Of a stretch of 64,000 nucleotides of DNA, positions 8,254-54,760 are shown piece after piece. Below the pieces are notes generated by a model. The model saw only the letters and a list, made by a program, of their open reading frames with translations. It was not told the origin of the DNA and did no database searches. The stretch spans positions 5,052 to 69,051 of the forward strand of contig JAIBAJ010000005.1 of assembly GCA_019695265.1 (NCBI GenBank), written 5' to 3'. Numbering within the stretch: the first letter of the stretch is position 1; each line of letters begins with the position of its first letter. The position numbers were made by a program, and so were the translations under genes. The stretch is from Bacteroidia bacterium (GTDB taxonomy: Bacteria; Bacteroidota; Bacteroidia; JAIBAJ01).

Positions 8254-8280
8254 AGTGTTCGACCATGCTTTTTTGTTTCT

Positions 8281-8955: not shown

Positions 8956-9154
8956 CTTGGTTGCCCAAACTTTTTTCAGCATTTTGTCTTTGCTTTTTCC
9001 GAACAGCATACATTACTCCTGCAATAAAAGTAAACACAAACAGGTACCAATTCCGTTCTATACCTGTTCGGGAGGATTCATAGGTTCCTAAAATCAAGCA
9101 TCCGATGGCTACTATGACCCACATGATTTCACTAATTCGCATCAATTTTAACAT
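8924..9154 (-). CDS. Small two-TM membrane protein (hypothetical)
   Basis: 76 aa with two hydrophobic helices (IMWVIVAIGCLILGTY and YLFVFTFIAGVMYAV) and a basic C-terminal tail. Overlaps the 3' end of the HAD gene convergently. Confidence 0.35.
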   Translation of the reverse strand: MLKLMRISEIMWVIVAIGCLILGTYESSRTGIERNWYLFVFTFIAGVMYAVRKKQRQNAEKSLGNQAKKDESHKAG

Positions 9155-9176
9155 GGCTTTTGGTTTTTGTTTGGAA

Positions 9177-9707: not shown

Positions 9708-9711
9708 TGCT

Positions 9712-11821: not shown

Positions 11822-11893
11822 GCTGAAAGGGAAGAATATTTCAAAAAAAATCCCCACCAAAACGGCAGGGATTTTTGAATAGTTCTTGTTGGA

Positions 11894-13213: not shown

Positions 13214-13279
13214 AAAAAATAATTTGTTGTTGTTGTTGTTTTCTGGGCGGCAAAGATACTAATAAAATTTTGACAAAAA

Positions 13280-14059
13280 TTAAAGGATTTCTTCTCTTAA
13301 CTTTTTAAAGTAATTCGCAGCTTTCAGCATTCTTGAACCATACCACGAAAACATTTCTCCATCCACTAAAACCACCTTGGATTGCTTAAATCTCTCCTGA
13401 TATTGCCTTACATGCTTAATTCCAAACGGATAAGGTTCAGAGGATAAAAAAATAAAATCCGGCTTCAAATCATGTATCGCTTCTAAACTTAATTCCGGAT
13501 ACCGTCGCAAATGACTCAAACTATTTCTAAATCCGGCCCTTCTCATACAATCGTTGATGTAAGTTTCATTGCCCGCCCCCATCATAGGCTTGTCCCAAAT
13601 TAGATAAACCGAACTATGATTTGTAGTCCCGGGCAATTGCTCCATTGAACGTGCTATCTTGCTTACCAGTTCTCCGGCCTCCCCGGTTTTGCCGGTTAGT
13701 TGTCCAACCTGTTGTATCATTGCCAATCCCGATTCCACCGTGTTAATGTCTGTTACCCAAACCGGAAAAGATTGAGACAATTCCAGTATGTCTTCTTCCT
13801 TATTCTCTTCCTTGTTCGCTAAAATTAAATCAGGATTCAATTGTGCAATTACATCTAATTTGAGCTGTTTAGTGCCTCCAACTAATTTCTTGTTGCTTAG
13901 TAAATGCCGGGGATGAATACAAAATTTCGTGATGCCAACCAATTCCTGCTCCAACCCCAAATCAACCAATAGTTCAGTTTGAGATGGAACTAAACTAACA
14001 ATTCGTTTTGGCGGCTTGCTCAGGTTTATTGTTCGACCCAATTGGTCAGTAAACTCCAT
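13280..14059 (-). CDS. Periplasmic substrate-binding protein of the BtuF/TroA-like (cobalamin or siderophore ABC) class
   Basis: RIVSLVPSQTELLVDLGLEQELVGITKFC is characteristic of BtuF-like helical-backbone binding proteins. No ABC permease or ATPase gene is adjacent. Confidence 0.65.
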   Translation of the reverse strand: MEFTDQLGRTINLSKPPKRIVSLVPSQTELLVDLGLEQELVGITKFCIHPRHLLSNKKLVGGTKQLKLDVIAQLNPDLILANKEENKEEDILELSQSFPVWVTDINTVESGLAMIQQVGQLTGKTGEAGELVSKIARSMEQLPGTTNHSSVYLIWDKPMMGAGNETYINDCMRRAGFRNSLSHLRRYPELSLEAIHDLKPDFIFLSSEPYPFGIKHVRQYQERFKQSKVVLVDGEMFSWYGSRMLKAANYFKKLREEIL

Positions 14060-14681
14060 AAAGCAAAAATAGTCAGTTATTCCATGGAAAGTGCGGATAC
14101 AATGGCTGTTTTAACCAGACTATCAAAATTGGTTAAATAGGGTTTGCTAATACACATTCAATCGATTCATTATAAGCCATTTAAATAATTATTTGAATCA
14201 CATTGGTGCAAGATTTTGAATTAGATTTTCTAGATTTCCTTGCATCCATATTTTTTGAAGATTACTTTGGATTGTTAGTCAGAAATACAGCATCTGCTTC
14301 GTTGCCTGCGGTTCGCATTATTTAAGTATACAGCTTCACCTTGGCGCCTTGCATCTACTGCATTTCTGACTTTTTCAGCAGATCCTAAATAATTATCAAT
14401 CGGATGAGTGATTTTTATTATACCCTAAGCAAGCCCCTAGGCAGAAGCAAAGCGGTATCAATTAATTTTAACCTTAAACAAACAGCTATTCCGGTGAATT
14501 GGTAGGTTAGTTTTACTAAGTTTCTATTCCATTCTCAATCATCCTATCTAAATCTAACAACCAAGTTAATTGCCCAAGCTTCAAACTTCGTTCAGGAAAG
14601 AAATGGACAAAAGATTACCACTGAAATTTTGATAATCAAAATCTCCCCCCCCCCTCAATAAATTTTAAAGAGAAATTGCAA

Positions 14682-15263
14682 TTAAATGCCTTGAGGAACA
14701 AAATCCTCTCTAAGAATATTTATCCTCTTAATCCCTCCCACTTTACCAATAACAGTTGACCCTAGCGGAGTTCCTTCAGGACAGAAAATTTTATGACAAA
14801 CCAAAGGAAAACATTTTACAATGTTTTTAATCTCTAACGTGAATCCTGCTTTAATTTTAGCACTTATAATGGATTCCAAAACCAAAAAAGTACTATTGTT
14901 TAGGTATTCCAAAAGAAGCTTTTTCTCAGGTAAAAATTCAAGGATTAACTTTTGACCTTCCCTTAGTTCATTCAAATTGAGAAAGCAAATTTCATTCGGA
15001 TTGCAACTTCCAACCTCCTGACCTTCTTGGCAAAAGTTATCCCATGAGGTATAACCCAAAACATTAGATAGAAGATCCAAAGTATAAAGATGCGGTTTGG
15101 CTGAGGGAGTGCTAAATCCAAAAAGACGTTTAAGGGTACTGGAACTTATATTACAGTTGTATCCCTCCCTTAAATCCTTGGAAATAGTTTCGCAGTCCTT
15201 TGGATACCGTATGGTGTATCCCAATTTCAGTTCAATGTTTTTTTTAAGCCTTTTGATGTTCAT
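14682..15263 (-). CDS. Small conserved HTH-like protein (paralog of 323-871)
   Basis: 193 aa. Shares the RYPKDCE..SKDLRE.YNCNISSSTLKRLFGFS and LVLES....K..F.LEI.NIV..FPLVCHKIF blocks with the 323-871 ORF. Confidence 0.55.
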   Translation of the reverse strand: MNIKRLKKNIELKLGYTIRYPKDCETISKDLREGYNCNISSSTLKRLFGFSTPSAKPHLYTLDLLSNVLGYTSWDNFCQEGQEVGSCNPNEICFLNLNELREGQKLILEFLPEKKLLLEYLNNSTFLVLESIISAKIKAGFTLEIKNIVKCFPLVCHKIFCPEGTPLGSTVIGKVGGIKRINILREDFVPQGI

Positions 15264-15392
15264 GGTAGAAGGCGATTTTAGTATATTTTTTTGTTGTTTA
15301 TAATTTAACGACCTAAAAGAACTTTATGACCTTTTTGATTTTTTTGATAGATTGATAGAAAAAGAAAATAGAATCTCTTTGTACCAAATCCG

Positions 15393-15399
15393 GGGGGGC
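15393..15399. other. G7 homopolymer tract 3 nt upstream of the start codon at 15402
   Basis: CCGGGGGGGCAAATG. A simple-sequence tract at a translation start is a candidate slipped-strand switch. Confidence 0.3.
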
Positions 15400-15401
15400 A
15401 A

Positions 15402-16142
15402 ATGTGTAATATTTTCAACCAAAATACTCAAATTATCGACCAACTATCATTTTGCCATATTCCACTTGACAGTATTGGTCTTAAATTAAATTTTTTGCAT
15501 GGTCAAAAAGAGTTAGTGTCATTTTTACACTTAGTTCAATCCAACAAAGCTCTCTCCGAGGGTCAAAATCAACAAAAAAATATAATTAAAGAGTTTGTTA
15601 TCAATCACTTAAACTCAATTAGCGACTTTTCATTACTGGACTCCGGGCTTATTTCATCGGAGATCTTACCCTTTCTTTTAGTGGGCTCTCCTCTTTTACT
15701 TTTTCTATTATTATTATTAAAATTTAGACCAAAAATTTTAATTCAAAAACCTTACCTCGTTTTAGGAGAAAGTTCAATTGACCACCTATGCATTTCCATA
15801 GTAAACCTTTCCAAACAGCAAGATTCAATTGGCATAAAAACCGAAGCTGAAATAATCAATGATAATATTACCTATCGCCTAATCCTTGAAGAAGATGGAA
15901 TGGAGATACAATCTATGAGGAAAAGAAAAGTTGGAATTTTAAACATGATTGTCCGAAAAATTGATTTTGCACCAATTGATTTAAGGCCTAAACCCGTTTA
16001 CCTAAAAGACCTATCTCTATTACTAAATTCTCCAAATACCATTTTAAAAATCAAAGTTATAGCAAAACACAAAATGTCAGGTATATGTCTATCAATTGAA
16101 AAAAAATATAGAAAAATAATTCACAATTACTACGAAATATAA
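15402..16142 (+). CDS. Single-pass membrane protein (distant paralog of 1128-1745)
   Basis: 246 aa. TM helix ILPFLLVGSPLLLFLLLLLKF. Conserved C-terminal domain shared with the 1128-1745 ORF. Confidence 0.45.
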   Translation: MCNIFNQNTQIIDQLSFCHIPLDSIGLKLNFLHGQKELVSFLHLVQSNKALSEGQNQQKNIIKEFVINHLNSISDFSLLDSGLISSEILPFLLVGSPLLLFLLLLLKFRPKILIQKPYLVLGESSIDHLCISIVNLSKQQDSIGIKTEAEIINDNITYRLILEEDGMEIQSMRKRKVGILNMIVRKIDFAPIDLRPKPVYLKDLSLLLNSPNTILKIKVIAKHKMSGICLSIEKKYRKIIHNYYEI

Positions 16143-16465
16143 AATACAAATAATTTTAATTATAGTTTAATATTTAATATAAATCATCAAATATAAATCA
16201 ATTAACAAAACAAATTAATAAGAGAATAAATCCATATACCCAAACCTTCATAATAAGCTGTAAAAAATAAATAACCCAATGCCAAGTTAGGCAAAACCAA
16301 CTAAAAATCCTTAACTTCCTATAACCTATGCAAAAACATCATTCTACTTAAATCCCCGTGACCTTAAACCCAGAATAATTCACCAAATAACCTTATAACC
16401 TAGTAATTTCCATTAACATGCTTTTTGCTAAATAATCAGCACCGCTGTTACATAACGCTCTCCAT

Positions 16466-16990
16466 ATGGCTCAAATGATAGAATCGTTATTACACCTTTC
16501 AAAACTAGAAATAGGTAGGCTTAATATAAAATTGGTCGATTTGCATCAGTTGGCACTTCAGGTTTTAGAAGAAAACAAACCTTATCCCAATCCAAATTTG
16601 CATTGCACAATAGATAGTTTGCCACCAATTAATACAGATCCAATCTTACTGCATCATGTTCTATTTAAGCTGATAGAAAACGCAATAAAATTCTCTTCCA
16701 AAAGAGAATATCCAAAAATTAAAATTTCAAGTTTTCTTTCAAGCGCTGAAATACGAATTTCAATCAAAGACAATGGTGTTGGATTTGATATGGCTGAATA
16801 TGATAAACTCTTTGGCACTTTCAAACGACTTCAATCCGGTAACGAATATCAAGGAGATGGCTTAGGACTCGTCTATTGCAAAAATGCCATTTCCAAATTG
16901 GGAGGTCGAATATGGGCTCAATCAATACTAGAAGAAGGTTCTGAATTTTCTTTCACTTTACCATACTCCTGCATACCTTCCAGTAATTAA
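16466..16990 (+). pseudogene. 5'-truncated remnant of the PAS histidine kinase, retaining the HATPase_c domain only
   Basis: The 174-aa ORF aligns (about 45% identity) only to residues ~415-584 of the 1748-3502 kinase (MTHLIDSLLSFSRLGK.. against MAQMIESLLHLSKLEIGR..). The H-box and PAS region are absent. An in-frame stop lies 9 nt upstream, and 320 bp of very AT-rich non-coding DNA replaces the 5' part. Confidence 0.6.
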
Positions 16991-17044
16991 AAATAAATAA
17001 TTCAAACAACACTAAACCAATATAAATTTTTACGTTATCTAAAT

Positions 17045-19021
17045 ATGAGGATTTTACATATCGAAGACGATGCCAGCGACGCCCTTTTCATTCAAAGAAA
17101 ACTCGCAAGTACATATACTCATTTAGAATACCTTCGAGTACAATCATTAGAAGAACTCAAAACTTCAATCCCATCTTTTGAACCAGACGTAATACTATCC
17201 GACCATCAATTAAATGGCTTTACCTCTAAAGAAATTTTTCAAATTTTCAAAGACTCTTGGCACAATTGCCCTTTTATACTAATTACAGATACCGTTTCAG
17301 AAGACTTCGCTGCCGAAGCACTAAGAAATGGGATAGATGACTATATTGTAAAAAATCGTATTGACCGTTTACCAAAAGTTATTGATACTTTACTTCTTAA
17401 AAACCAACTCTTAAAAGAGAGAGATGAATACATCAATCAAATTATTGAAAGCGAAACCAGATACCGCGACTTATTGTATTCAACCACCGAACTAATCCAT
17501 AGCGCTGATTTACAAGGTAACCTGAATTTTGTAAACCAATCATGGAAACGCTTTCTTGGATACTCCAGTTCCGAAGTCATCAACCGAAACATCTTCGAAT
17601 TTATTGCAGATTCTTCCAAAAGATCCTGCGAAATCAAATTCCAACGATTAATGAAAGGCGAAAAAGTGGAAGATATGAAACTAGAAATGATTGCCAAAGA
17701 CGGCCAATTGAGAAAAATGGAAGGATTAGCCGTCCCTCGTTACATTGGGAATTATCTTATTGGATCTCATGCCTTTTTAAAGGATATTACCGAAAAAGAA
17801 GAAATCCAAAGCAAACTTATTGAAAGCGAAAAACGATACGCACTTGCAATTGCTGCAACTTCAGATGGTATCATTGACCTTAATATTAAAAACAAACAAT
17901 TTTACCTTTCAAACCATTGCTTTGAAATACTTGATCTAGCTCCCCAACCCATCTCAATCTCTAACCTTCATTCCATCGTACCTTCCGGGTTCTATCTCTG
18001 GGTGAAAAACCTGGTAAAAAACAATGGAAAAAAATTGAAAAATTCACTTTTCGATCAAGATATTGAAATTTTCTCCAACCCATCAAAATGGGTAAATATT
18101 AAAGCAATCTTCAACCATAAAGATTGCCGAATTAATGGCTCAATCCGGAATATTACCGAAAAAAAAATCCAAGAAATAAAAATTCAAAACTTTAATAAAA
18201 ATCTGGAAATTCGGGTAGATCTTAAAACTAAAGAGCTTAAAAAGGCTATATCTTTACTAACCAGCCGCAATAAAGAAATACAAGACAGTATTCATTACGC
18301 AAAAAGAATTCACGATGCCTTAACTTCCCATCCCAGAAACTTGGATGAAATATTTCCAAATTCCTTTATTCTTAACCTCCCCAAAGATGTAATTGGCGGC
18401 GACTTTGCTTGGTTTCAACAGGTGGGCAATACCAAGTTTATTGCAGCAGCCGATTGCACAGGCCATGGTGTTCCTGGTGCCTTGCTTTCGGTGGTTGCAA
18501 CCATTCTTCTTGATGAGGCAGTTCTTAAACAAGAAATAAACAATCCTTCCAAAATCCTTGAATTCGTAAATAAACGCCTTTTAAACCTACTTAATAACAC
18601 TGAAGATCTATTGTCGGATGGCCTTGACATCGCCCTTTGTGCAATCAATCCCAATTGCAGGAAAATCCTATTCTCAGGAGCAAATCGACCCATTTATTTC
18701 AAAACCAACAACCAAATTACAGTCCTTCATGGCGATAAAATATCGCTTGGCGAACCCGAAAAAAACCATGTATTTTCACTTCAAACTATTTCTTACATGC
18801 CTAATGACCAGCTCTTTATGCATTCAGATGGAATTACCAGTCAATTTGGAGGAAAATTCGGAAAAAAATTAAAACGACAACACTTACTGAACGAATTAGA
18901 ATTTGATATGCCGATGCCTCAGAAATACCGTTTTATTCGTGAACTATTTGATGAATGGAAAGGTGACTTGGAACAAACTGACGATGTGTTGGTAATCGGT
19001 ATCACTTTGCCTTCAACTTAG
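17045..19021 (+). CDS. REC, PAS and PP2C (SpoIIE-type) phosphatase response regulator (paralog of 3951-5933)
   Basis: 658 aa. REC N-terminus (MRILHIEDDASD ... DVILSDHQL). PP2C motifs GGDFAWFQQ..AAADCTGHGVPGALLSVV, DGLDIALC, MHSDG and DDVLVIGI. Confidence 0.85.
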   Translation: MRILHIEDDASDALFIQRKLASTYTHLEYLRVQSLEELKTSIPSFEPDVILSDHQLNGFTSKEIFQIFKDSWHNCPFILITDTVSEDFAAEALRNGIDDYIVKNRIDRLPKVIDTLLLKNQLLKERDEYINQIIESETRYRDLLYSTTELIHSADLQGNLNFVNQSWKRFLGYSSSEVINRNIFEFIADSSKRSCEIKFQRLMKGEKVEDMKLEMIAKDGQLRKMEGLAVPRYIGNYLIGSHAFLKDITEKEEIQSKLIESEKRYALAIAATSDGIIDLNIKNKQFYLSNHCFEILDLAPQPISISNLHSIVPSGFYLWVKNLVKNNGKKLKNSLFDQDIEIFSNPSKWVNIKAIFNHKDCRINGSIRNITEKKIQEIKIQNFNKNLEIRVDLKTKELKKAISLLTSRNKEIQDSIHYAKRIHDALTSHPRNLDEIFPNSFILNLPKDVIGGDFAWFQQVGNTKFIAAADCTGHGVPGALLSVVATILLDEAVLKQEINNPSKILEFVNKRLLNLLNNTEDLLSDGLDIALCAINPNCRKILFSGANRPIYFKTNNQITVLHGDKISLGEPEKNHVFSLQTISYMPNDQLFMHSDGITSQFGGKFGKKLKRQHLLNELEFDMPMPQKYRFIRELFDEWKGDLEQTDDVLVIGITLPST

Positions 19022-19027
19022 TTTTTT

Positions 19028-19170
19028 AAGTATTTGGCGGGCCCATTCGCACAACAATTTCACTTCGTCCGATAGTTCGTAAGGCTCATGGCCGGGCTAT
19101 CGCCGCTACTCCTCACCCGAAAGTATTCGGGTTGCGGGGTAGCATGCTCTATCCCTGCCCGAACGGAACC
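19028..19170 (-). repeat. Repeat R1 copy (minus orientation)
   Basis: The reverse complement reads ..CGGGCAGGGATAGAGCATGCTACC..GGCGATAGCC..GAATGGGCCCGCCAAATACTTAAAAAAC. It shares the 5' block, the GGCGATAGCC block and the 3' GGGCCCGCCAAATAC block with the other R1 copies. Begins 7 nt after the PP2C gene stop. Confidence 0.6.
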
Positions 19171-19560
19171 TCTACCTTTGGGTATATTGTTCTTGGCATT
19201 TATCTTAAAAAGGTCTGTTTCAAATCTCCTGCCAATACTTTGTTCTCAACCTCTATTTACATTAATGATGTTCGGGTATAAAGTTAGAAATGCAAAATGA
19301 TAAACTAACATGGCCAATCCCCTTTCTATATACTCCAAGTCAGGTTCAATGTAAATACCGCATTGCTAACTAACAAACCTGTTATACCAATCAATTGGGC
19401 TTAAAACGGGAATATTAAACCCTGCCAATCCCCTTGATTTCATTGGGTTTACCCAAACCGGGAACCTAATTTTAATACAATCCAAAAAAAAAATTATTCC
19501 ATCCGTTATGGAATCCGTCCAACTAGGCATCTAAATACTGAAACCAAAACCTTCTTTATC

Positions 19561-22500
19561 ATGCAACGATTTGGAAAATCCTTCTTGCCCATTGGCCTAT
19601 TCGTTTTGGCAGTGGCACTTATTCTGGCTTTAAATGCCAATTCTATCTTTAATCCAACTTCCATTCGACACCTGTTTCCGGCAGTTGAAAATGAATTGAT
19701 TCGAACCTTGAGGGAAAAACTCAATCGTTTGAATCAAACTCATCCGGAAGACCGCCTTTACCTGCAAACAGATAAAACATTTTATAGTCCGGGCGAAACC
19801 ATCTGGTTCTCCGCCTTCCTTCGAAAAGGATCCGACTTTAGTGCTTCCGATAAAAGTGAAGTGATCCACCTTGAATTTTTAAACCCTGCAGGTGCAGTAG
19901 CAAAAAAACTGGATCTTATTGCTATCAACGGCCAAAGCCGTGGCGATTTGCTTATTGAAGAAGAACTACCCGGCGGCATCTATACCCTCAAAGCTTTTTC
20001 CAATTGGATGAAAAACGACTCCTCTTTTTTCGAAAAGAAAATTACGGTTCAGGAATTGGTTCTTCCTCGACTCAAAATGAAACTAGATTTCGAACGAGAA
20101 GGATTTGCCCCCGGCGAAGAAGTAGTTGCTAAACTTATCCTTGAATCCAACGAAAATAAAGCCCTGTCTAATCACTCCTTCCGGTTTAGCGTTTCGCTCG
20201 GTGGCAAAGAATTCATGAACAACCTATCCTCTACCGGAAACAATGGGGAAATGTTCATTCGCTTTCATTTGCCCGCTAAACTAAAAACCGGAGATGGTTT
20301 GCTCCTAGTCTCCCTCGACTACGAAGGCCAATCAGAAAGCATTAGCCGAAGCATACCTATTGTCCTGAACCAAGTAAAACTGGAACTATTTCCAGAAGGT
20401 GGTGACCTTATCCAAAACCTCGAAAGCCGTGTGGCCTTCCGGGCCAGAAACCATCGAGGAAAACCCACCGATATTAAAGGTAGGGTGGTTGACCAAAACG
20501 GTAAGGAAATCACCTCTTTCACCAGTTTTGCCAAAGGTTTGGGACATTTTAACCTTATTCCTGAACCCGGTAGAACTTATTTTGCCCAAATTACCTCGCC
20601 GGCATGCGATGACCGGGTAGAATTGCCTTCCGCTTTGTCTCAAGGTTTTGTTTTAAAAACCGGGGAGGCCCAAAACCTGGATCTTCCTATCCAAATCCTA
20701 AGTACCATTCCAACCAAAGCATCCCTCGTGGCTACCGTAAGAGGAAAAATATATTGGGCAACTGAAGTAGCTCTTGCCTCCGGAAACAACCAGGTTATCA
20801 TGCCCCTTGATCAATTCCCGATGGGGGTTGCTCAAATAACCTTGTTCGATGCAAATGGAATTGAACGTTGTGAACGCCTGGCCTTTGTTAACCGCGACAA
20901 ACAGCTTCGCCTGCATATACAAACCGATAAGGAAAAATACCTCCCCCGTGAAAAAGTGAAAATGACCATCTCCACTACCGACGCTAGTGGACTACCGGTT
21001 GCCTCCCAACTGGGTATATCGGTGGTAAACGACCAATTGCTCGCTTTCGCCGACGACAAACAACAGCATTTGCTGGCATCACTCTGCCTTCAATATGATA
21101 TTAAAGAACCCATTGAAGAGCCTAATTTCTTCTTCGATACCAAAGAATCAAAAAGCCTTCGTGCCTTGGATTACCTCCTTCTAACCAGCGGTTGGAGGCG
21201 ATTCTCGTGGAAAGAAATTAGAACTGAAACAGTTCCTCAATTTGGGTTTGAAGGGGAAAAAGCAGAAATCTATGGTAAAATCTTGGATGCTTATACCGGT
21301 AAACCCATTCAGGCCGCCTTTGTAAAACTGGTAGGAACTAAAACCACTACCCGAAGCGATGAAAATGGAACCTTCCGAATCAAAAAAGCCGATATCTCCT
21401 CCTTTAACCAGCTTGAAATACGAATGACTGATTACCAGGTGCTTACTGCAAACCTTACCCATCTGAACGACCAGGGTGTTTTGTACCTGAACTCAAATCG
21501 CCCTGTTGCTTTAATTAAAATGGTTGAAGCATGTGCTAATGTACCTATGGCTTTGGTAAAGCAGGATGAAGTAGATGCAGGTTTTGCAGATTTTAACTGG
21601 GATGTGGTAGAGGAAAAGCAATTAGCCAAAGTTCCAAATAAAGAAAGACAACCCGCCAGGGCTAAACCAGCACCTAAAAGAGCACAAGCCGATTCAATAA
21701 TTTTCCGAAAAGGGGATGCTCTGGCCAAAAATAAAGCTAAAAAGGAATTTCAAAACGAGGATATGAAGGACATGGGAAAATGGTTCTTACCGCAAGAGGA
21801 GCCACCTATTCCTCAACAACCGGAATCCCACTTTGTCAGGGCCCGCCAATTCCCGGTTTCCAAACCCGAACCGCTTCAACCATCCGATGTAAGAACCGAT
21901 TTCCGTTCCACCCTTTTCTTCGATGGTATGCTTGAAACCGACCGAAGCGGCAAAAAAACAATCGAATTCTATACCTCCGATGAAATCACTTCCTTCCGGA
22001 TTACCGCCGAAGGTATCGGCGAAAACGGATTGCCCGGACGAACCGAACAAACCTTATTCACCCAGCTACCTCTCAGCATTTCAGCCAAAATCCCCACTAG
22101 CTGCATCCTGGGCGATGTGGTAGCTATCCCGGTTACCATTAAAAACAATTCCAACACCGGCTTGTCAGGCAAACTCAGCATTTCTGCACCCAAAGGCTTT
22201 AACATAAAGCATGAACCGGCCCTGACGCAAACCCTTGACGCAAACCAAGCCAAAACAATTTACCTTAACTACGAAGTAAGCGGCACCGCACAAACCGATA
22301 GCATCCGAATCTCCTTCCACTCTGCCTCCCATAGCGACCAACTTTGCCAAGCCATAAAAACCGAAGCCAAAGGTTTCCCAATGAGCTTAGCTTTCTCCGG
22401 CAAACAACTGGAAGCTGAACACGAGTTCGCCCTCTCCAACATCGTTTCGGGTAGCTTGCAAGTAAACCTCACCGCCTTCCCTTCCGTTGTTTCTGACCTG

Positions 22501-23961
22501 ATGAAAGGGGTGGAAAGCATCCTCAACGAACCTTCCGGATGCTTCGAACAAACCAGTATGAGCAGCTACCCCAATGCCATGGTGCTCGATTACCTGAAAA
22601 CCATTGATTCCCACGACGAAAAAATCCTTCAACGTGCAAACCAATTGCTCGACCAAGGCTATAAACGCCTCATCAGCTTCGAAACCAAACAAAAAGGCTA
22701 CGAATGGTTTGGCTCCTCTCCCGGCCACGAAGCCCTTACCGCTTACGGACTTATGCAATTTAACGACATGAAAAATGTGTATGCCTCGGTCGATAACAGC
22801 ATGGTTGACCGTACTGCAAATTGGCTCCTGGCTAAACGCAACGGTAAAGGTGGTTTTATGCGCAATGCCCAGGCACTCGATCAATTTGGCGCCGCAGACC
22901 AGGATATTACCGACGCCTACATCGTGTACGCCCTGTCCGAAGCAGGCTTCGCCAACCAACTAAAACTCGAATACCAAAAAAATGTAGAACATGCCATCAC
23001 CTCCAAAGACCCTTACCTCATGGGTATGATGACCATGGCTGCCGTACAATCCAACGACCGTACCAATGCCGATAAACTCGCTAAATTGCTTGTTAACTCC
23101 CAGGAAAAAGACGGTAGCTGGAATGCAAAAAAACACAGCATCACCCGTAGCGGCGGATTAGGCCTGCGCATCGAAACTACTTCCCTAGCAATCATGGCAC
23201 TTCTCGCCTACGACCAAGGCTTCAACGGCGAAATAAACAAAGCCGTGGAGTTTCTTATCAATAACCGAAATGCCTACGGTGGTTACGGAAGCAGCCAGGC
23301 AACCATACTTTCTCTAAAAGCGCTTACCCAATACGCCAAATTCAATAAAAAAGCCGGCGAAGACGGTACCATCGAACTCTTTGCCGACGGCCGCAAAATC
23401 GCCGAACAAGCCTATACCAAAAATACCAAAGATCCTATCCAATTCAAAAATCTGGAAAAGGAAATTAAACAAGGTAAAACCAAGTTTAAAATCAAGTACA
23501 AAGGTGTAAAAAATGCCTTGCCATATTCTCTCGCAATTACCTACCACTCCTCGCTTCCGGCCAGTAGCGACCAATGTGTTATCGGTATCGAAACATCCCT
23601 CGATGCCAAACAAATTTCCATGGGGCAAACCTGTCGTATGCACATCGAGTTGAGTAATCTTACCAACCAGGGTCAACCCAGTACCATGGCTATTATTGGT
23701 CTGCCAGCCGGTTTGTCGGCTCAACCCTGGCAATTAAAAGAGCTGATGGAAAAGCAAAGCTTCGACTACTATGAAATAAAAGGAAATAAGCTGTTTTTAT
23801 ACTATCGCCAAATGAAACCTAACGAGTCAAAATCCTTTAACCTAGACCTAAAAACCGAATTTCCCGGCACATTTTTGGCCCCGGCTTCCTCGGCGTATTT
23901 GTACTACACACCCGAGTTCAAATGCTGGAAAGCCCTAACTCCCATCACCATCATTCAATAG
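19561..23961 (+). CDS. Bacterial alpha-2-macroglobulin family protein (large, N-terminally anchored)
   Basis: 1466 aa. N-terminal signal or anchor (LPIGLFVLAVALILALNA). SGCFEQTSMSSYPNAMVLDYL resembles the thioester region CxEQ (E. coli YfhM has CLEQ). MG-domain-like repeats. GC is about 48%, higher than the flanks. Confidence 0.8.
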   Translation: MQRFGKSFLPIGLFVLAVALILALNANSIFNPTSIRHLFPAVENELIRTLREKLNRLNQTHPEDRLYLQTDKTFYSPGETIWFSAFLRKGSDFSASDKSEVIHLEFLNPAGAVAKKLDLIAINGQSRGDLLIEEELPGGIYTLKAFSNWMKNDSSFFEKKITVQELVLPRLKMKLDFEREGFAPGEEVVAKLILESNENKALSNHSFRFSVSLGGKEFMNNLSSTGNNGEMFIRFHLPAKLKTGDGLLLVSLDYEGQSESISRSIPIVLNQVKLELFPEGGDLIQNLESRVAFRARNHRGKPTDIKGRVVDQNGKEITSFTSFAKGLGHFNLIPEPGRTYFAQITSPACDDRVELPSALSQGFVLKTGEAQNLDLPIQILSTIPTKASLVATVRGKIYWATEVALASGNNQVIMPLDQFPMGVAQITLFDANGIERCERLAFVNRDKQLRLHIQTDKEKYLPREKVKMTISTTDASGLPVASQLGISVVNDQLLAFADDKQQHLLASLCLQYDIKEPIEEPNFFFDTKESKSLRALDYLLLTSGWRRFSWKEIRTETVPQFGFEGEKAEIYGKILDAYTGKPIQAAFVKLVGTKTTTRSDENGTFRIKKADISSFNQLEIRMTDYQVLTANLTHLNDQGVLYLNSNRPVALIKMVEACANVPMALVKQDEVDAGFADFNWDVVEEKQLAKVPNKERQPARAKPAPKRAQADSIIFRKGDALAKNKAKKEFQNEDMKDMGKWFLPQEEPPIPQQPESHFVRARQFPVSKPEPLQPSDVRTDFRSTLFFDGMLETDRSGKKTIEFYTSDEITSFRITAEGIGENGLPGRTEQTLFTQLPLSISAKIPTSCILGDVVAIPVTIKNNSNTGLSGKLSISAPKGFNIKHEPALTQTLDANQAKTIYLNYEVSGTAQTDSIRISFHSASHSDQLCQAIKTEAKGFPMSLAFSGKQLEAEHEFALSNIVSGSLQVNLTAFPSVVSDLMKGVESILNEPSGCFEQTSMSSYPNAMVLDYLKTIDSHDEKILQRANQLLDQGYKRLISFETKQKGYEWFGSSPGHEALTAYGLMQFNDMKNVYASVDNSMVDRTANWLLAKRNGKGGFMRNAQALDQFGAADQDITDAYIVYALSEAGFANQLKLEYQKNVEHAITSKDPYLMGMMTMAAVQSNDRTNADKLAKLLVNSQEKDGSWNAKKHSITRSGGLGLRIETTSLAIMALLAYDQGFNGEINKAVEFLINNRNAYGGYGSSQATILSLKALTQYAKFNKKAGEDGTIELFADGRKIAEQAYTKNTKDPIQFKNLEKEIKQGKTKFKIKYKGVKNALPYSLAITYHSSLPASSDQCVIGIETSLDAKQISMGQTCRMHIELSNLTNQGQPSTMAIIGLPAGLSAQPWQLKELMEKQSFDYYEIKGNKLFLYYRQMKPNESKSFNLDLKTEFPGTFLAPASSAYLYYTPEFKCWKALTPITIIQ

Positions 23962-23980
23962 CTGTCGTGCGGTTGGTAAA

Positions 23981-24020
23981 GGGGGCATTCGAAAGGATGT
24001 TCCCCTTTTTTGTTTTTTGA
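23981..24020 (+). terminator. Putative intrinsic terminator after the A2M gene
   Basis: GGGGGCA ttcgaaagga TGTTCCCC followed by TTTTTTGTTTTTTG. Confidence 0.5.
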
Positions 24021-24261
24021 AAACAATCGTTCATCCCCTGAAGAATCTCCTGCCCCGTTATCGCCCATAGTTTGCCGTAAAGGTGAATTGGTATTTCATT
24101 TTTTTATGGGTCGGCAAAGCTATTTGGCTCTACCGGGTTTAGCTTAATTTCTGTTTGCTTTCAAATAATCGGCATCAATTGCAGTCCCAGCCCTAGCTTC
24201 TTTTTCCCAATTCTTGCTAATTCTGTTTCCCGATTTAAAAAAAACTGGAATTTAGCCCCAA

Positions 24262-33594: not shown

Positions 33595-33773
33595 TACCAA
33601 TGTTATTTAATACCGAATGGACATTATGTTTAGTCCAATTTTATGTATTAATTTTATTCTTAAATTTTATTGAAAAAAAATTGGACTCTACCTTAGGTCC
33701 AATAGGCATAATTTATACCGATTGCAAATCTGTAATAGTCAAAAGATACGATTGATAAAGAATAGAATGGTTG

Positions 33774-33940
33774 AGGTTGCGCCTCGGGCAACGATAGAGG
33801 CAAGTAGCCCACAGGCTCACGCGGCGCTAGCCAAGTGGGCCGAGGACTACAGCCGATAGCGTGACCCGAACGCCTGTGCAGGGTGGTTATAAATTTGCAA
33901 AATGGTAGTTAGGCGGAGGGGGCCCGCATACTAGGAATTT
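33774..33940 (+). repeat. Repeat R1 copy (plus orientation), reference copy
   Basis: GGTTGCGCCTCGGGCAACGATAGAGGCAAGTAGCCCACAGG..GGCGCTAGCC..GAGGACTACAGCCGATAGCGTGACCCGAACGCC..GGGGGCCCGCATACTAGGAATTTTAAAAAA. Lies in a convergent intergenic gap. Confidence 0.7.
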
Positions 33941-34059
33941 TAAAAAATAAACAATCCTTACCAAAGACTTAAGCGGAATAACCTAGTCAAGCTATGAACC
34001 CGGCTTTTGTTGACTTGGATAGGACTACCCGGTGGGTTAAGGAAAAAGACTCTTTCGAA

Positions 34060-45812: not shown

Positions 45813-45949
45813 TGGCCTATTGCAGATTGGCAATCGGTATTAAATCCAAATTCAGCACAATCAGGTGGGTAATTAAGCCTTAAGTCTATTTTTTTCAAAA
45901 CCCACCGGATCCGATGTTTACATTCAAATTATGGCAGGTTCAAGTTGGT

Positions 45950-46128
45950 GCTTTTTTGGGGGGTTCCCCTAACGGGTCGGGCTTTCCGTTCCAATCTTTT
46001 TGCTCGTGCCTCGACAAAAAGGATTTCCACTGCAATCCCTAACCCGGGTGCAAGCTATACGTGGTGGTGCAGGTAATTAGCATGGTGCTTTCTAATAGCT
46101 TTCGCAGCAATTGAAATCTCCGATTGGC
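45950..46128 (-). repeat. Repeat R2 copy 2 (inverted relative to 6751-6925)
   Basis: Near-identical reverse complement of 6751-6925. Confidence 0.75.
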
Positions 46129-46242: not shown

Positions 46243-46410
46243 GTTGGGTTTGCACCCCGGGCAACGATTGAGGCAAGTAGCCCACAGGACACCTACGGCG
46301 ATAGCCTAGGGGGACGAGGACTACAGCCGAAAGCGTGACCCGAACGCCATTTGCCTGTACATTGGTTGTGCAGGTAGTTGGTAGGCGTGAAGGGGGCCCG
46401 CCAACATACA
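46243..46410 (+). repeat. Repeat R1 copy (plus orientation)
   Basis: GGTTGGGTTTGCACCCCGGGCAACGATTGAGGCAAGTAGCCCACAGG..GGCGATAGCC..GAGGACTACAGCCGAAAGCGTGACCCGAACGCC..GGGGGCCCGCCAACATAC. Confidence 0.7.
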
Positions 46411-46451: not shown

Positions 46452-49400
46452 CTAAAAATCCATACTAAGAGAAAGGTAAAATATGGGTTTTAGAATAATG
46501 CCATCCACTGCACCCCAGGCATAATCGGCTCGAATAAAGTAGCCTAAAATTTTAGTTCGTGCACCGAAACCAAAGCCATAAACCAAGGGGTCGGTCGTGT
46601 TTTTTAACTTAATGGTGAGTGATCCGTCCTGAATAATTTTGGTATTAAAGGTATTTCGATCAGAGTAGGGGGTTAATCCGTTCCAAGCCGTTCCAACATC
46701 GCCAAACCCAATCAATTGAAAATTGTTGATGAAGTCGGATTTGATAGGCCTATTAACCAAATAACGGAAAATTGGCCAGCGAATTTCGGAATTGATAACT
46801 GCAAAATTGGTTCCATTTCGAATATTTTGGTAGAAACCTCTCATATTGGTAGCAATGGCCTGGTATTGGTAATTTTCGGTTTGGGACACCGGAATAGAAT
46901 TGTCATACTTGGTACCTAACCAATTGTCTACTCCGCCCAGGTAATACAGCAGTTTTTCATTTCCCAGGCTTGAACTTCCGGCTACCCGGTTAGCCCAAAT
47001 CAAATCTCGGTGAATGCGGGTATAGTGTCTGAAATCGGCACCAACCACAGCGAAATAATTGGTATTGTTGAGGTGGTGATAGAACTCCCCAAAAATTTTG
47101 TAACGTGCCCCTTGGTAAAGGTTTAGGCCTCTTGAAATGGTATTATCGAAAATATATTCCAGTTTTACACCACCCAAATAGCTATTGTCGTTCGGTTTGC
47201 GCAAATTGGCTTCATCTACACTCAGGTAGGCAACCCTGTCGTGGCGACCCAGAATGGTGGCTTTAACTGCCGAATTCTCAGTAAATGGGTAACGCAAGAT
47301 ATAGCTTAGGGTGTGAGACTGAACCTTGTTAGGGTAATTGGCTGCGGGGTTTGAAAAGGCCTGGCGATGGAAAAACACCTGTTTATCGAGGCGTTTTTTG
47401 AGATTTTGCCAACTTAGAAAAAATTCATTGGAATTTAGATTGGCGGCCAGTCTAAAACCACCAACAATTTTATAGTCTTCGAACAGGTCGCTTGCACCTA
47501 ACTTAAACAATCCGTTGATTCCCGGATTAAAATAAACGGCGCCTCCACCGGTGTAACGCTGATAGGAGCTGGAGGTAAAAGAATTGTCTAATTGGGTTAC
47601 CACATAGTCGGTTGAGAACCGGATTTCATAGGGGCGTTGTTTAGCTAATTTAAAGGTGATGGTATCTTCTGCAAGTCCGGAGGCTCCGTGTTTTTGTTTA
47701 TCTTTTTCTTTGCGTTTAGACAACCTGTCTCCGCTGCCTGCCGGGTTATTGGTTTGGTTAACGGCATTGATGGAGTCGCGGATTAGTTCCACACCGGCCT
47801 TTTTCTTTGGGGCATAGGTTTCATTGGTAAAAACGTAATTGTCTATATCAATTTCATCGGGATTGGACTTAGTTTTGGGTGGTTCAATTTTGGGTTTTTC
47901 AACCGGGGTGGGTTTGGCTTGAACCTTTTCTTTTTTCTTGGTTTCCCGTTTAGAATCTTTTTCTTGCTTGGATCGAAAGAAGTTGGAACTTAGTTTTACT
48001 TCTTCTTTTTTATCGCTCGAAATGGGTTTGGTAAACAATTTATAGCGACCGTTTTCAAAGTATACTTCACCCAACACATTGGCTTTGGGGGCAGCATCCA
48101 TTTGCAAGAGGTTGCGTTGGTAATTGGTGATAGGGTAGGAGGTGGTGAACCAACGGTAATGGGTTATGGTATCTATAAAGGCAATGGTGCTGTCGATTCG
48201 GGCTAAATAGCGGTTTTGAATTCCGTTGGCATCGCTGATGTAGGCAAAGTGGGAGGTGTCGTAAGCAATAGGCATTATTTCATCGGCGAATTTGGTTGAA
48301 GAAACCCGCTTTAAAACCTGGCTTTTGGTTTTGTAGTCATAAATGAATAAATCGAGGTTGGCATCGCGGTGAACAATAGACGAATCTTTTGGTTTTATAG
48401 TATCATTCACCCGGTTGGAGCTAAATACTACTTCACGACTTTTATTGATAAACCTTGGATACAAATCATCCCAGGAATCTTTGGTAACCTGGAGATAGGT
48501 ATTGGAAATAATGTCGTAGATGAATATGTCACTTTGGCCAAATTGAACAGCCGAAAAGGCAAACTTTTTACCATCGTCCGAATAGGAGTAATCCAGTATT
48601 TTATCGAAGTTATGCAAGGGGCGAGTATCAATTTCTCGGGTATCAACATTGTACATCGAAAGCAGAATTTTACCTTTTTTCTCCGTAATCCAGCTTAGTA
48701 GTTGTCCACTTGGATGCCAGGCTAAAAGTGGATAGCTGTAATCGGTTTTTTGTACACTTCGGTATTCTTGTTTCAGTAACTTTTTCTGGCGTTTTTTAGA
48801 ATCCAGATTCTTTATGAAAATCCGGTACAAACCCATGTCATTCACTACATACGCCGCTTTTTGTCCATCCGGACTCAATTTCAAATTCTGATAAACCCTA
48901 CCTTTCCTGAAGCGTTTCAAAACCAGGTTGCCCTGAGGAGTTTCCAATTTTTTTAATGGCTCGATGTATTGTTTTTTGTAATACTCTTGCCATTGTTCTA
49001 CCAGGGTTTTCAATTGAACGCCCAAAACGAAGTTAAATCCATTTTCCACATTCCGGCTCACTCTGGTCATGTAAAGGATATCGGAAATAACCGATTTTCC
49101 GTAACTATCGGCAATAAAGCTCCACAAGGAATGCCCGGCATAGGTGGCCTGATCCCCGCTTAAACGATTCAGTTTGTTAAACTTTCCGGAAACGATTCCG
49201 TCTTTGACCTGGTTTTCTATATCGGCATTCCAGTCTTTTGAAATATACGATATCAACCCATTCATATACCACTCGGGAAGGTTTAAAAAGGCTGAGTTTC
49301 GGATAACATCTTTAATACTGCCACCATACATCATTTGTCCAATCATTACCTGAGCAATTCCGGCCCTGATTTGTTCTTCCAAATGCCGGTGGTCCCCATC

Positions 49401-49799
49401 GAAATACAGAACCATTTTACCGTCTACCAGGTGGGTGAGGCCGCCGGTATTATAGGTAACATCGGTATTTAGACCCAAATTGCTTTGCCTCAGGTCGGAG
49501 AGTTTGTTGTAAACAATAAATTGCAAGCGTTCGTCAATGGTATAATCAAAGCGTTTTTGAATTTCCACCATTGATTTTTCGGCGGTTTTGGCCGTATAAA
49601 TGGCCAATTCTTTACCACCCAAATAGAAGTAAATATCGTAATGTTCGTACCGGTAAAATTGCCAGAGAAATTCATTAAACTGGAGGCGGTTCTTACCAAA
49701 AGTCATTTGCGACCCGTTGTAAAACTGGGCATTGGCCTGCAGGCTGAGCAAACCTAATAAACTAGCATAAAAAAATCGACCAAGCAGTTTCACACGCAA
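46452..49799 (-). CDS. Large secreted protein with a TolB-like beta-propeller region and a C-terminal beta-barrel (hypothetical)
   Basis: 1115 aa. Signal MRVKLLGRFFYASLLGLLSLQANAQ. The middle region has PD40/WD40-like repeats (..YSDDGKKFAFSAVQFGQSDIFIYD..). The C-terminal ~330 aa have alternating hydrophobic beta-strands and end ..YLSLSMDF (terminal Phe). Confidence 0.5.
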   Translation of the reverse strand: MRVKLLGRFFYASLLGLLSLQANAQFYNGSQMTFGKNRLQFNEFLWQFYRYEHYDIYFYLGGKELAIYTAKTAEKSMVEIQKRFDYTIDERLQFIVYNKLSDLRQSNLGLNTDVTYNTGGLTHLVDGKMVLYFDGDHRHLEEQIRAGIAQVMIGQMMYGGSIKDVIRNSAFLNLPEWYMNGLISYISKDWNADIENQVKDGIVSGKFNKLNRLSGDQATYAGHSLWSFIADSYGKSVISDILYMTRVSRNVENGFNFVLGVQLKTLVEQWQEYYKKQYIEPLKKLETPQGNLVLKRFRKGRVYQNLKLSPDGQKAAYVVNDMGLYRIFIKNLDSKKRQKKLLKQEYRSVQKTDYSYPLLAWHPSGQLLSWITEKKGKILLSMYNVDTREIDTRPLHNFDKILDYSYSDDGKKFAFSAVQFGQSDIFIYDIISNTYLQVTKDSWDDLYPRFINKSREVVFSSNRVNDTIKPKDSSIVHRDANLDLFIYDYKTKSQVLKRVSSTKFADEIMPIAYDTSHFAYISDANGIQNRYLARIDSTIAFIDTITHYRWFTTSYPITNYQRNLLQMDAAPKANVLGEVYFENGRYKLFTKPISSDKKEEVKLSSNFFRSKQEKDSKRETKKKEKVQAKPTPVEKPKIEPPKTKSNPDEIDIDNYVFTNETYAPKKKAGVELIRDSINAVNQTNNPAGSGDRLSKRKEKDKQKHGASGLAEDTITFKLAKQRPYEIRFSTDYVVTQLDNSFTSSSYQRYTGGGAVYFNPGINGLFKLGASDLFEDYKIVGGFRLAANLNSNEFFLSWQNLKKRLDKQVFFHRQAFSNPAANYPNKVQSHTLSYILRYPFTENSAVKATILGRHDRVAYLSVDEANLRKPNDNSYLGGVKLEYIFDNTISRGLNLYQGARYKIFGEFYHHLNNTNYFAVVGADFRHYTRIHRDLIWANRVAGSSSLGNEKLLYYLGGVDNWLGTKYDNSIPVSQTENYQYQAIATNMRGFYQNIRNGTNFAVINSEIRWPIFRYLVNRPIKSDFINNFQLIGFGDVGTAWNGLTPYSDRNTFNTKIIQDGSLTIKLKNTTDPLVYGFGFGARTKILGYFIRADYAWGAVDGIILKPIFYLSLSMDF

Positions 49800-49896: not shown

Positions 49897-50070
49897 TTTT
49901 TGGTTTGTTGCTTTGGCGGGCTGCCTTTTGCCCAAAAAAAATCGCTGAACCCCAAAGCTTTCCACCAGGGCAAAAGTCACCGGGCTTTCGGCTGTAGTCC
50001 TCGCCCCCCAAGGCTAGCGCCGTTGGGGTTCTGTGGGCTACTTGCCTCTATCCCTGCCCGATGGTGCAAA
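49897..50070 (-). repeat. Repeat R1 copy (minus orientation), forming an inverted pair with 46243-46410 around the 1115-aa gene
   Basis: Reverse complement: GGGTTTGCACCATCGGGCAGGGATAGAGGCAAGTAGCCCACAG..GGCGCTAGCC..GAGGACTACAGCCGAAAGCC..GGCAAAAGGCAGCCCGCCAAAGC. Confidence 0.7.
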
Positions 50071-50108
50071 CCCATACTGCCGTCTTTCAAACCAATTGTT
50101 GCCGCTTA

Positions 50109-54569: not shown

Positions 54570-54760
54570 ATGGTTGTAAAGAGTGCGAAAGTTGGGGCTA
54601 AGGTCGGGCAACGATTGGAGCAAGTAGCTCTGCTGAAGCCGCAGCGGTAGCGGAGGTGGAGGCAGACTACTGCGGAAAGCGTGACCTTTTTGCCCCTGAC
54701 AATTCCCAATGGAATTTGGTTGCCGGTAATGGGGGCAAAAAGGGGCCCGCCAAATACTAA
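54570..54760 (+). repeat. Repeat R1 copy (plus orientation)
   Basis: ..GTCGGGCAACGATTGGAGCAAGTAGC..GCGGTAGCGG..GACTACTGCGGAAAGCGTGACC..GGGGGCAAAAAGGGGCCCGCCAAATACTAAAAAT. Confidence 0.65.

Follow-up and report, generated by a model that had tools for sequence, protein, structure and literature searches.

An intergenic repeat of Bacteroidota with a predicted three-way-junction fold, the long form of the Flavo-1 element

What kind of element is a structured sequence that recurs between unrelated genes, with no transposase beside it? The question is raised by R1, a repeat found in a stretch of 64,000 nucleotides (nt) from a Bacteroidia bacterium (assembly GCA_019695265.1, contig JAIBAJ010000005.1, positions 5,052 to 69,051), called the window below. 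R1 is the long form of Flavo-1 (RF01705), an element of which the Rfam model covers a single arm, and its copies share a three-way junction, as modelled on an alignment of the family. The explanation that we rank first, at about an even chance of being right, is that R1 is a dispersed element of the Flavo-1 family, similar to repetitive extragenic palindromic (REP) sequences and bacterial interspersed mosaic elements (BIMEs) or to enterobacterial repetitive intergenic consensus (ERIC) sequences, whose fold would be recognised by an enzyme encoded elsewhere, most plausibly one specific for single-stranded DNA (ssDNA). Its main rival is a role at the RNA level in read-through transcripts.

Copies in the window and their shared fold

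The window copies were located with a covariance model built in this analysis, which returned the same positions with the search filters off. A first-pass annotation, made from the letters alone, had listed five full copies and a fragment at the window end; the covariance model confirms the five full copies where they had been placed, except that copy E begins about 24 nt later. Copy B (33774-33936, plus strand; 131.9 bits, cmsearch E-value 1.8e-37) is a full element with a short leader, the three-way junction and a tail. The other full copies are C (46247-46410, plus; 122.7 bits), D (49907-50071, minus; 117.4 bits), E (54594-54759, plus; 123.1 bits) and the divergent copy A (19028-19172, minus; 62.5 bits). 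Copy F (63972-64000, minus) is cut by the window end and retains only its 3' end (GGGGCCCGCAUAAUAGG...); these last 29 bases of the window are 93% complementary to the 3' end of copy B (33919-33947). Among public contigs, the protein that flanks copy F turned up on just one, 786 nt long.

Pairwise identity among the window copies is 44-72%, and their G+C content is 56-60% vs 39.8% for the window. All of them are intergenic, as had been noted, and their flanking genes are mutually unrelated housekeeping genes: a response-regulator/PAS/SpoIIE phosphatase, an alpha-2-macroglobulin-like protein, a DUF6600 protein, a TonB-dependent receptor, a patatin-like protein and an M43 peptidase with a type IX secretion system (T9SS) sorting domain are found among the neighbours, with others. 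Open reading frames (ORFs) that were predicted across the copies are non-coding, because stop codons interrupt most frames of every copy, copies differ in length by numbers not divisible by three, and frame shifts separate the translations of related copies. They are artefacts of GC-rich DNA within an AT-rich genome, as the first-pass annotation had suspected.

Conserved blocks had been proposed for the 5', middle and 3' parts of R1, and they differ in how well they hold. The 5' block, in its 23-nt degenerate form GGGCANNGATNGNNGCAAGTAGC, occurs four times in the window vs 0.01 expected by chance. The 33-nt middle block GAGGACTACAGCCGAAAGCGTGACCCGAACGCC, described as common to three copies, is exact in copy C only, with one mismatch in copy B and about its first 21 nt in copy D. 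The 3' block GGGCCCGCCAAATAC is not significant by itself (four matches at up to three mismatches vs 1.6 expected, two of them exact, in copies A and E). The complementary segments CCCAC..GTGGG and CCCCAA..TTGGGG, read in the first pass as a sign of secondary structure, are real and lie in the distal part of one helix of the fold, P2.

The fold that the R1 copies share is modelled as a three-way junction made up of a closing helix of 5 bp (P1), two arms (P2 and P3) and a single-stranded tail, and the single-sequence folds of copies B and C have this same architecture. In the minimum-free-energy fold of copy B, the 5' strand of P1 (CGGGC, 33785-33789, plus) pairs with GCCCG at 33922-33926. P2 (33791-33862, plus), a long hairpin, is the counterpart of the Rfam Flavo-1 motif. 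It contains symmetric internal loops rich in purines and, distally, a small hairpin; conserved within it are ACG-A-UA-GAG-GC-AAG-UAGCC in the 5' strand and GGACUAC-A-GCC-GA-UA-G-CGU in the 3' strand. P3 (33865-33921, plus) is a variable hairpin (CCCGAACGCC ... GGCGGAGGG) with a large loop. The 3' strand of P1 and the tail together occupy 33922-33931 (plus), as placed by the fold and the flanking sequence, and the tail reads CAUAC in copy B and CCAAA in most copies. Across the family the conserved segments of P2 are ACG-A-UU-GNA-GC-AAG-UAGCC ... GGACUAC-N-GC-GGA-AA-G-CGU. Both strands of this arm bear similar purine-rich triplets, GNA opposite GGA, which gives it a two-fold symmetric look, and its tip often repeats the pattern as GC-GNA-[mini hairpin]-GNA-GC.

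Covariation was assessed on a structure set by hand on an 18-sequence alignment, from which a model was built; 101 matches (92 distinct) from the window and from fetched loci were then realigned to it. This structure and realignment were used in place of RNAalifold on a plain MAFFT alignment, which under-called P3 and mis-set P1. Among the 92 distinct sequences, 89.7% of the paired cells form standard pairs, vs 64.3% in shuffles and 31.1-43.1% in slid controls, and the covariation score is 0.416 vs 0.105 for shuffles (0 of 500 reach the observed value) and 0.035-0.067 for slid controls; these values come from an alignment fitted to the model. Changes on both sides are seen in 33 of the 36 modelled base pairs, with many of the double changes supplied by the two main subfamilies, and one-sided changes are nearly absent.

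The double changes extend over all three helices. P1 alternates between CGGGC/GCCCG and GCGUG/CACGC, with 5 of 5 pairs changed on both sides; the base of P2 alternates between ACG/CGU, GGG/CCC and GCG/CGC; and in P3 all 10 modelled pairs have two-sided changes across the family. Even the GUAG/CUAC helix, usually invariant, is flipped to CUAC/GUAG in copy A and reads GUAC/GUAC in another copy, in locus L016. The claim that R1 conserves a secondary structure is borne out by these structure-preserving changes. Conservation of the core is not itself evidence, because the metagenome set was gathered by an exact core pattern. Two further pairings were considered and dropped. Pseudoknots between the 5' leader and the P3 loop, or between the CCAAA tail and a UUUGG in P3, were inconsistent across subfamilies when the alignment was checked by eye, and an outer helix GUUGG/CCAAC is present in copy C and is not general.

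Just upstream of copy B the window also holds an AT-rich imperfect hairpin at 33610-33709, with arms at 33610-33642 and 33677-33709 that are 76% complementary; Rfam microRNA-like matches to it are at chance level only.

Relation to Flavo-1 and taxonomic range

No Rfam family was found at any R1 copy when all families were searched over the whole window at their gathering thresholds, and copies B, C and D gave no Flavo-1 match even at an E-value of up to 10. When gathering and permissive thresholds were applied to the window, to the R1 copies and to 20 related loci, Flavo-1 was the only family to appear, at none of the R1 copies. Its two matches in the window, at 6814-6904 (plus) and 45971-46060 (minus), score 61.4 bits each (gathering score 42 bits) and lie in short Flavo-1-type copies that had been missed before, at 6752-6926 (plus) and 45949-46122 (minus). 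These are inverted twins with 99% identity. The former has a P1 of GGGUU/AACCC, P2, a mini P3 (CCCGUUAGGG) and a CCAAAAAAAA tail, and is preceded by a duplicated leader of about 66 nt.

The filters-off search of the window yields seven strong hits (at least 32 bits) with a clean gap to noise, which brings the density of the family to 7-8 copies per 64 kb. The sole exception to the gap is a weak hit at 24010-24152 (minus; 12.6 bits, E-value 0.026 over the whole window), also missed before, which may be a decayed copy. In this hit one can make out a P2-like hairpin (CCG-G-UA-GAG-CC-AAAUAG ... CUAU-GG-GCGA-UA-A-CGG) and neither P1 nor P3; the hit is positioned 49 nt past the stop of the convergent gene 19561-23961.

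Several observations tie R1 to Flavo-1. The R1 model matches the two certified Flavo-1 loci end to end (model positions 1-165) with 37.3 bits (6818-6924) and 32 bits, and the match takes in P1 (GGGUU/AACCC), the mini P3 and the CCAAAAAA tail, all of which are beyond the Rfam model. A metagenome locus that was found by the R1 core string, L077, scores 48.2 bits with the Rfam Flavo-1 model, above threshold. The original Flavo-1 seed alignment has rows that start with GCGUGAGGGAUAG and end with CGGAUAGCCCGACC. R1 also carries the Flavo-1 pattern of two successive symmetric internal loops, GAU(U/A)G(N)AG / G(G/C)GA(A/U)AGC, with pairs supported by covariation. Because of the end-to-end matches, the intermediate L077 and the seed rows, R1 is identified as a long-form Flavo-1 element, of which the Rfam model covers the P2 arm only; what had seemed an unfamiliar sequence is a relative of a known family.

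Both forms occur in the same phylum and have the same hairpin, with the repeated GAU(A/U)G...G(A/G)A(A/U)AGC internal-loop pattern. They differ in the distal helix, which is AAGUAGCC/GGACUAC in R1 where Flavo-1 has GGAAAUCC/GAUUG; R1 also has an extra distal hairpin and a long P3 with a loop of 30-40 nt, for a total of about 160 nt vs 76 positions in the Rfam model. The closing helix P1, P3 and the CCAAA tail all fall outside that model. Rfam types Flavo-1 as 'Gene; sRNA'. Weinberg et al. (2010) listed 239 members and judged the motif a likely RNA without a cis-regulatory role (PMC2864571), and in the Flavobacterium psychrophilum transcriptome Flavo-1 matches lie sense or antisense to transcribed regions, with many untranscribed (PMC9723704).

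The first-pass annotation had considered a genome-specific element, which is not what the distribution shows: the family is present in many Bacteroidota genomes and metagenomes. A scan of species-representative genomes found 14 loci in the 4.43-Mb uncultured Bacteroidia metagenome-assembled genome (MAG) OZ260106.1 and one Sediminibacterium-binned sequence identical to a locus of that MAG; its other matches look like chance, and the window is not among these loci. Scanning metagenomes for the P2 core (GCAAGTAGC N25-55 ACTACNGCNGAWAGC) gave 62 loci and revealed a shorter, GC-rich form, GCGUGAGGGAUAGGAGCAAGUAGCCC...GGACUACUGCGGAUAGCCCGAC-[short P3]-GGCACGCCCAAA. Proteins beside this short form are 85-90% identical to proteins of MAGs named 'Flavobacteriales bacterium' or 'Bacteroidetes bacterium', and T9SS sorting domains occur in seven neighbours. 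Given the neighbour-protein names and these domains, all loci examined belong to Bacteroidota, and the family is, as far as seen, confined to this phylum. Viral contigs and plasmids gave no match.

Several short metagenome contigs carry a second copy. A short GC-rich copy stands upstream of the phenylacetate-degradation gene paaZ in loci L029, L046/L060/L085 and L047; these copies have the same core and differ in their P2 tips and P3 hairpins, a case in which a copy stays at its locus and the variable arms are replaced. One R1 pair occurs with identical sequence in L008 (Sediminibacterium sp. bin07) and L017 (Bacteroidia bin03), two bins of one sample, which is most likely a binning duplicate rather than a transfer.

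Placement, gain and recombination of copies

The copies are placed with a bias relative to genes. For 59 copies, genes were called on either side. In 40 of these, a convergent gene points its stop codon at the CCAAA end, at a median distance of 25 nt and in many cases of 0-15 nt; in the other 19, the CCAAA end is directed at a gene start, at a median distance of 108 nt. Where the flanking genes are in tandem, the element is antisense to them in 18 cases and sense in 9. Divergent copy pairs 90-900 nt apart are frequent in the Bacteroidia MAG (bin03), each tail abutting the end of the flanking gene. In the window, 7 nt separate the tail of copy A from the stop of its convergent neighbour, gene 17045-19021, and 42 nt separate the tail of copy C from the stop of its own, gene 46452-49799. 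Copy D lies 108 nt upstream of this latter gene on the same strand, and copy E 95 nt upstream of gene 54854-56719, which encodes TPR and SpoIIE phosphatase domains.

No protein family accompanies the copies. An all-against-all BLAST of 355 flanking ORFs found no recurrent neighbour protein, and 148 neighbouring ORFs match 143 Pfam families, among which transposases, recombinases and reverse transcriptases do not recur; the earlier remark that no transposase stands beside the copies holds in this survey and in a motif scan. More specifically, the HUH...Y motif scan found no HUH/Y1-like ORF in 658 kb of fetched loci, and TnpB, IscB, TnpA and IS110 genes were absent among the 148 ORFs and by motif scan. 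ORFs inside divergent pairs (L018 and L024) were considered as transposases and rejected, since their translations read like those of ordinary small genes. TAnnTTTG, the -7 box of Bacteroidota, is near 2 of 32 copies vs 2.6 expected, and consensus scans found neither sigma-70-like promoters nor intrinsic terminators at the copies.

Comparison of the region around the gene between copies C and D with related contigs shows that copies come and go and that they recombine. This gene (46452-49799, minus, 1115 amino acids) has close homologues on public contigs. In L089 (86% protein identity) and L090 (84%), a PagL gene starts 12-13 nt past its stop and is followed by a HAD hydrolase gene. The PagL and HAD genes of the window are located at 7171-8934, on the other strand and 39 kb from the 1115-aa gene, and the breakpoints of this inversion are exactly the Flavo-1-type twins at 6752-6926 and 45949-46122. 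Family copies thus serve as substrates of homologous recombination, and the 39-kb inversion could instead be an assembly flip at the repeat. When it is undone, the adjacency of the 1115-aa gene and PagL is restored, with a spacer of about 750 nt vs 13 nt that holds copy C, one Flavo-1-type copy and other DNA. Copy C is absent at the orthologous site in both L089 and L090. Since a trace-free loss from both relatives seems unlikely for a 13-nt spacer, we favour a gain of copy C and the Flavo-1-type copy in the window lineage over such a loss.

Copy D has an orthologue in L089 (L089:1-152; 66.8 bits) in the same place and orientation, and the two differ by several compensatory changes. There is no copy at the D site in L090, L091/L092 and L093, where the upstream gene also differs. 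Within one genome, similarity between R1-type copies begins about 9 nt before P1 and stops at the tail, which defines a unit of about 158 nt; the scaffold ends sharply at this short conserved tail, followed by unrelated sequence.

Copy A is associated with an old segmental duplication (323-5933 / 14682-19021), whose matching blocks are 71-85% identical at a spacing of about 13.1-14.4 kb and include two paralogous response-regulator/PAS/SpoIIE genes. Copy A starts 7 nt past the second copy of the duplication; past the end of the first there is no R1, and no homology persists after the stop codons. A segment of about 15 kb that contains the duplicated segment, copy A and the alpha-2-macroglobulin-like gene (window about 9000-24200, with the weak hit 24010-24152 at its right edge) is absent between the HAD and GAF genes in L089 and L090. 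As for the 1115-aa protein, it has no Pfam match and is widely conserved in Bacteroidota, with homologues that carry Tricorn_N/Tricorn_2nd and PD40-type annotations.

A second, unrelated repeat in these genomes, R2, is a classical miniature inverted-repeat transposable element (MITE); it is about 195 nt long, and its terminal inverted repeats (AACCCAGATTACGCATTAGAAATCG ... GATTTCTAATGCTGAATTTGGGTT) measure about 30 nt. Its copies in the Bacteroidia MAG (L002:6780-6975, L009:2700-2895 and L010:7547-7742) are nearly identical, two of them 100% over 106 nt. R2 is often within a few nucleotides of an R1 tail, and an R2-related half copy lies in the window at about 63885-63960 (plus), between gene 63377-63874 and copy F. 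A literature search on MITEs in Flavobacteria gave nothing relevant among the titles and abstracts listed.

The folded molecule, competing explanations and known systems

Whether the fold is used as DNA or as RNA can be approached through its pairing statistics. Paired cells in the 92-sequence alignment comprise 2528 Watson-Crick pairs, 28 G·U/U·G and 29 A·C/C·A. G·U is normally much less disruptive to a functional RNA than A·C, and it usually accounts for several percent of pairs in Rfam-type alignments. One-sided changes, as noted above, are nearly absent. Furthermore, 192 cells at fixed positions carry A·G or G·A, and because these become C·T or T·C on the complement, it is the R1 strand that is structured, rather than the two strands alike. 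Folding energies computed with RNA parameters favour the R1 strand over its complement in 53 of 90 copies (mean difference -0.3 kcal/mol), and those with DNA parameters do so in 79 of 90 (mean difference -2.1 kcal/mol). The mRNA of the neighbouring gene would mostly carry the complement of the structured strand, namely in the 40 of 59 copies that face a stop codon. Equal numbers of G·U and A·C, the DNA energies (weakly) and an mRNA strand that is mostly the wrong one thus point to a fold used as ssDNA, more likely than as RNA.

For R1 as a dispersed element, the mechanism that we consider most likely is the following. The fold would form in single-stranded nucleic acid of the R1 strand, likelier DNA than RNA, and an enzyme encoded elsewhere would recognise this structure in order to copy or move the element. 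By analogy, such an enzyme might handle R1 as HUH/Y1 enzymes treat REP sequences and the ends of IS200/IS605 elements, with the CCAAA tail as a putative junction or cleavage site; mobility would then be the way in which copies are gained. A bolder form of this explanation, which we consider unlikely, is that Flavo-1/R1 sequences are not RNA genes and instead are the substrate of a Bacteroidota-wide, REP-like ssDNA system acting on three-way junctions with two-fold symmetric G·A-rich loops and a CCAAA junction, with a new or unassigned enzyme, that spreads without terminal inverted repeats or duplications and drives large inversions.

A number of observations weigh against a mobile ssDNA element. 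A mobilising enzyme was not found in the 658 kb of loci or among the 148 neighbouring ORFs. The filled site in the window and the empty sites of the relatives differ by about 740 nt rather than by one clean element, and for this reason insertion of a single element is not demonstrated. No crisp 5' end was found for R1. Terminal inverted repeats are lacking, the only inverted termini being the 5-bp P1, and target-site duplications are absent from the flanks of 90 copies and of the twin pair. R1 is thus not a classical MITE, in contrast to R2 in the same genomes; the REP/MITE-like element proposed in the first pass was the better of its two candidates, and it is the MITE half that does not apply. 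R1-type copies are old, with about 88% identity at best between two copies of one genome, and show no sign of a recent burst except in the Flavo-1-type twins, whose 99% identity may stem from gene conversion. The stability difference with DNA parameters is small (about 2 kcal/mol), and a need for both strands to fold could likewise produce the shortage of G·U. Finally, because the fold is kept in diverged copies and D and its L089 orthologue differ by compensatory changes, selection appears to act on each resident copy. Such selection is unneeded for a purely selfish element and looks more like a function at the host level, possibly as RNA.

It is this last point from which the main rival takes its strength. 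Here R1 would be an RNA module in read-through transcripts, such as an exonuclease barrier, a processing site or a protein-binding site, roles demonstrated for certain REP and ERIC elements, kept by selection at each locus, with dispersal ancient and secondary. We regard this as somewhat unlikely. It would account for a fold retained at 44-72% identity, for the compensatory changes between D and L089, for the retention of paaZ-upstream copies in several relatives and for copies that adjoin stop codons. The conserved two-fold symmetric purine loops (GGAUAG on both arms) resemble a protein-dimer site, and from their sequence they would suit a dimeric binding protein under either reading, DNA or RNA. 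However, an RNA module agrees poorly with the missing wobble preference and with an R1 strand that gains no stability advantage as RNA. Transcripts would carry the complement of R1 at most loci, and both orientations occur; no terminator-like U tract is present; and many Flavo-1 matches in F. psychrophilum lie outside transcribed regions (PMC9723704).

The remaining explanations are each contradicted by a tested feature. Trans-acting small RNA (sRNA) genes, each with its own promoter, would agree with the Rfam type, with the verdict of Weinberg et al. that Flavo-1 is not cis-regulatory, and with copies that are discrete, structured and intergenic. This proposal, close to the small structured RNAs that the first-pass annotation had named as its other candidate, is weakened to a slim chance by copies in both gene orientations without TAnnTTTG enrichment, promoter or terminator, by a density far above that of sRNA families (7-8 copies per 64 kb and second copies on many short contigs), by the lack of a conserved single-stranded seed other than CCAAA, and by G·U pairs that are not preferred over A·C. 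Equally improbable is a guide-RNA scaffold (the omega RNA of TnpB/IscB, or a bridge RNA) or a non-autonomous end of the IS200/IS605 type, in which the variable flank would be guide or target. A scaffold that stops sharply at a conserved tail with unrelated sequence beyond it, the lack of target-site duplications as in IS200/IS605, and high copy number with no transposase in cis speak for it; yet there is no match to an Rfam omega-RNA/HEARO or IS605-orfB family and none of the corresponding enzyme genes is nearby, short GC-rich copies fill the entire intergenic gap and so leave no room for a second transposon end, and the copies are old and diverged. A cis-regulatory leader of the downstream genes, either a riboswitch or a protein-binding 5' untranslated region, is extremely unlikely. 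Copies D, E and those upstream of paaZ do lie 40-200 nt ahead of a same-strand gene, and three-way junctions are a common riboswitch architecture, but only 19 of 59 copies have a co-directional downstream gene. These genes are functionally unrelated, and the copies hold no consistent position ahead of genes with a related function. Moreover, the conserved nucleotides are in the loops of P2 and not at the junction, and neither an expression platform nor a terminator is present.

The reading of R1 as a dispersed structured element has consequences for annotation. Rfam has listed Flavo-1 as an orphan 'sRNA' since 2010, and its published motif is one arm of a larger element; because Rfam annotation misses the long-form subfamily entirely, these GC-rich islands are called as spurious ORFs. 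If R1 is indeed a DNA-like dispersed repeat, an 'RNA family' would be reclassified as a REP-like genomic element of Bacteroidota, where REP-like elements are poorly described. This would allow better annotation and alertness to repeat-mediated inversions and misassemblies, and it would provide a structure with which to find the binding enzyme. The importance would rise if R1 proves to be the substrate of an unrecognised ssDNA system in Bacteroidota.

Among known systems, REP sequences, BIMEs and REP doublets forming hairpins (REPINs) share with R1 a high copy number and an extragenic, structured nature. They lie mostly after genes and between convergent genes, often a few nt from stop codons, a placement at gene ends that R1 also has. 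They form frequent inverted pairs, as R1 forms divergent pairs in the bin03 genome; both contain GTAG/CTAC, lack target-site duplications and could plausibly fold as ssDNA. REPs are hairpins of 20-40 nt with an unpaired 5' GTAG foot, whereas R1 is a three-way junction of about 150 nt in which GUAG is paired with CUAC inside P2, and is swapped in some copies (CUAC/GUAG, GUAC/GUAC). REP stems often show G·T (PMC3733652), and R1 has none in excess. Unlike in REP systems, no gene for a REP-associated tyrosine transposase (RAYT) stands beside any R1 copy examined, and the link of R1 to RAYT enzymes is by analogy only. The published 'atypical REPs' of Bacteroidetes RAYT subclass 2.6 were considered as R1 and set aside, as they are different short hairpins without the R1 core.

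The ends of IS200/IS605 elements, their non-autonomous derivatives, the palindrome-associated transposable elements (PATEs), and the TnpB omega RNA resemble R1 in being structured, in a short conserved junction sequence and in the lack of duplications, and also in recognition as ssDNA and mobilisation in trans, if R1 works as proposed. R1 differs from IS200/IS605 in having no second end, no TnpA/TnpB nearby and no match to an Rfam IS605 RNA. Integron attC sites, too, act as a folded single strand whose sequence varies while pairing is kept, right after the stop codon of the preceding gene. R1 as an attC site was rejected: its attC-like boxes are not at the right ends, where RYYYAAC/GTTRRRY would be expected, its copies are scattered in both orientations and not in co-oriented arrays, and no integrase is found among the neighbours.

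ERIC sequences, also known as intergenic repeat units (IRUs), are found in enterobacteria. Like R1, these and similar long structured repeats are non-coding, intergenic, imperfect palindromes, about 130-170 nt long and variably present between strains, with no known transposase and with copies that evolve by compensatory changes. They belong to another phylum and have another sequence; ERIC, whose transcription is known, folds as one long hairpin, in contrast to the three-way junction of R1. What is new here is the full three-way-junction architecture with its tail, the division into a long-form and a GC-rich short-form subfamily, a placement close to stop codons and biased in orientation, lineage-specific gain, a repeat-bounded inversion and a missing wobble signal.

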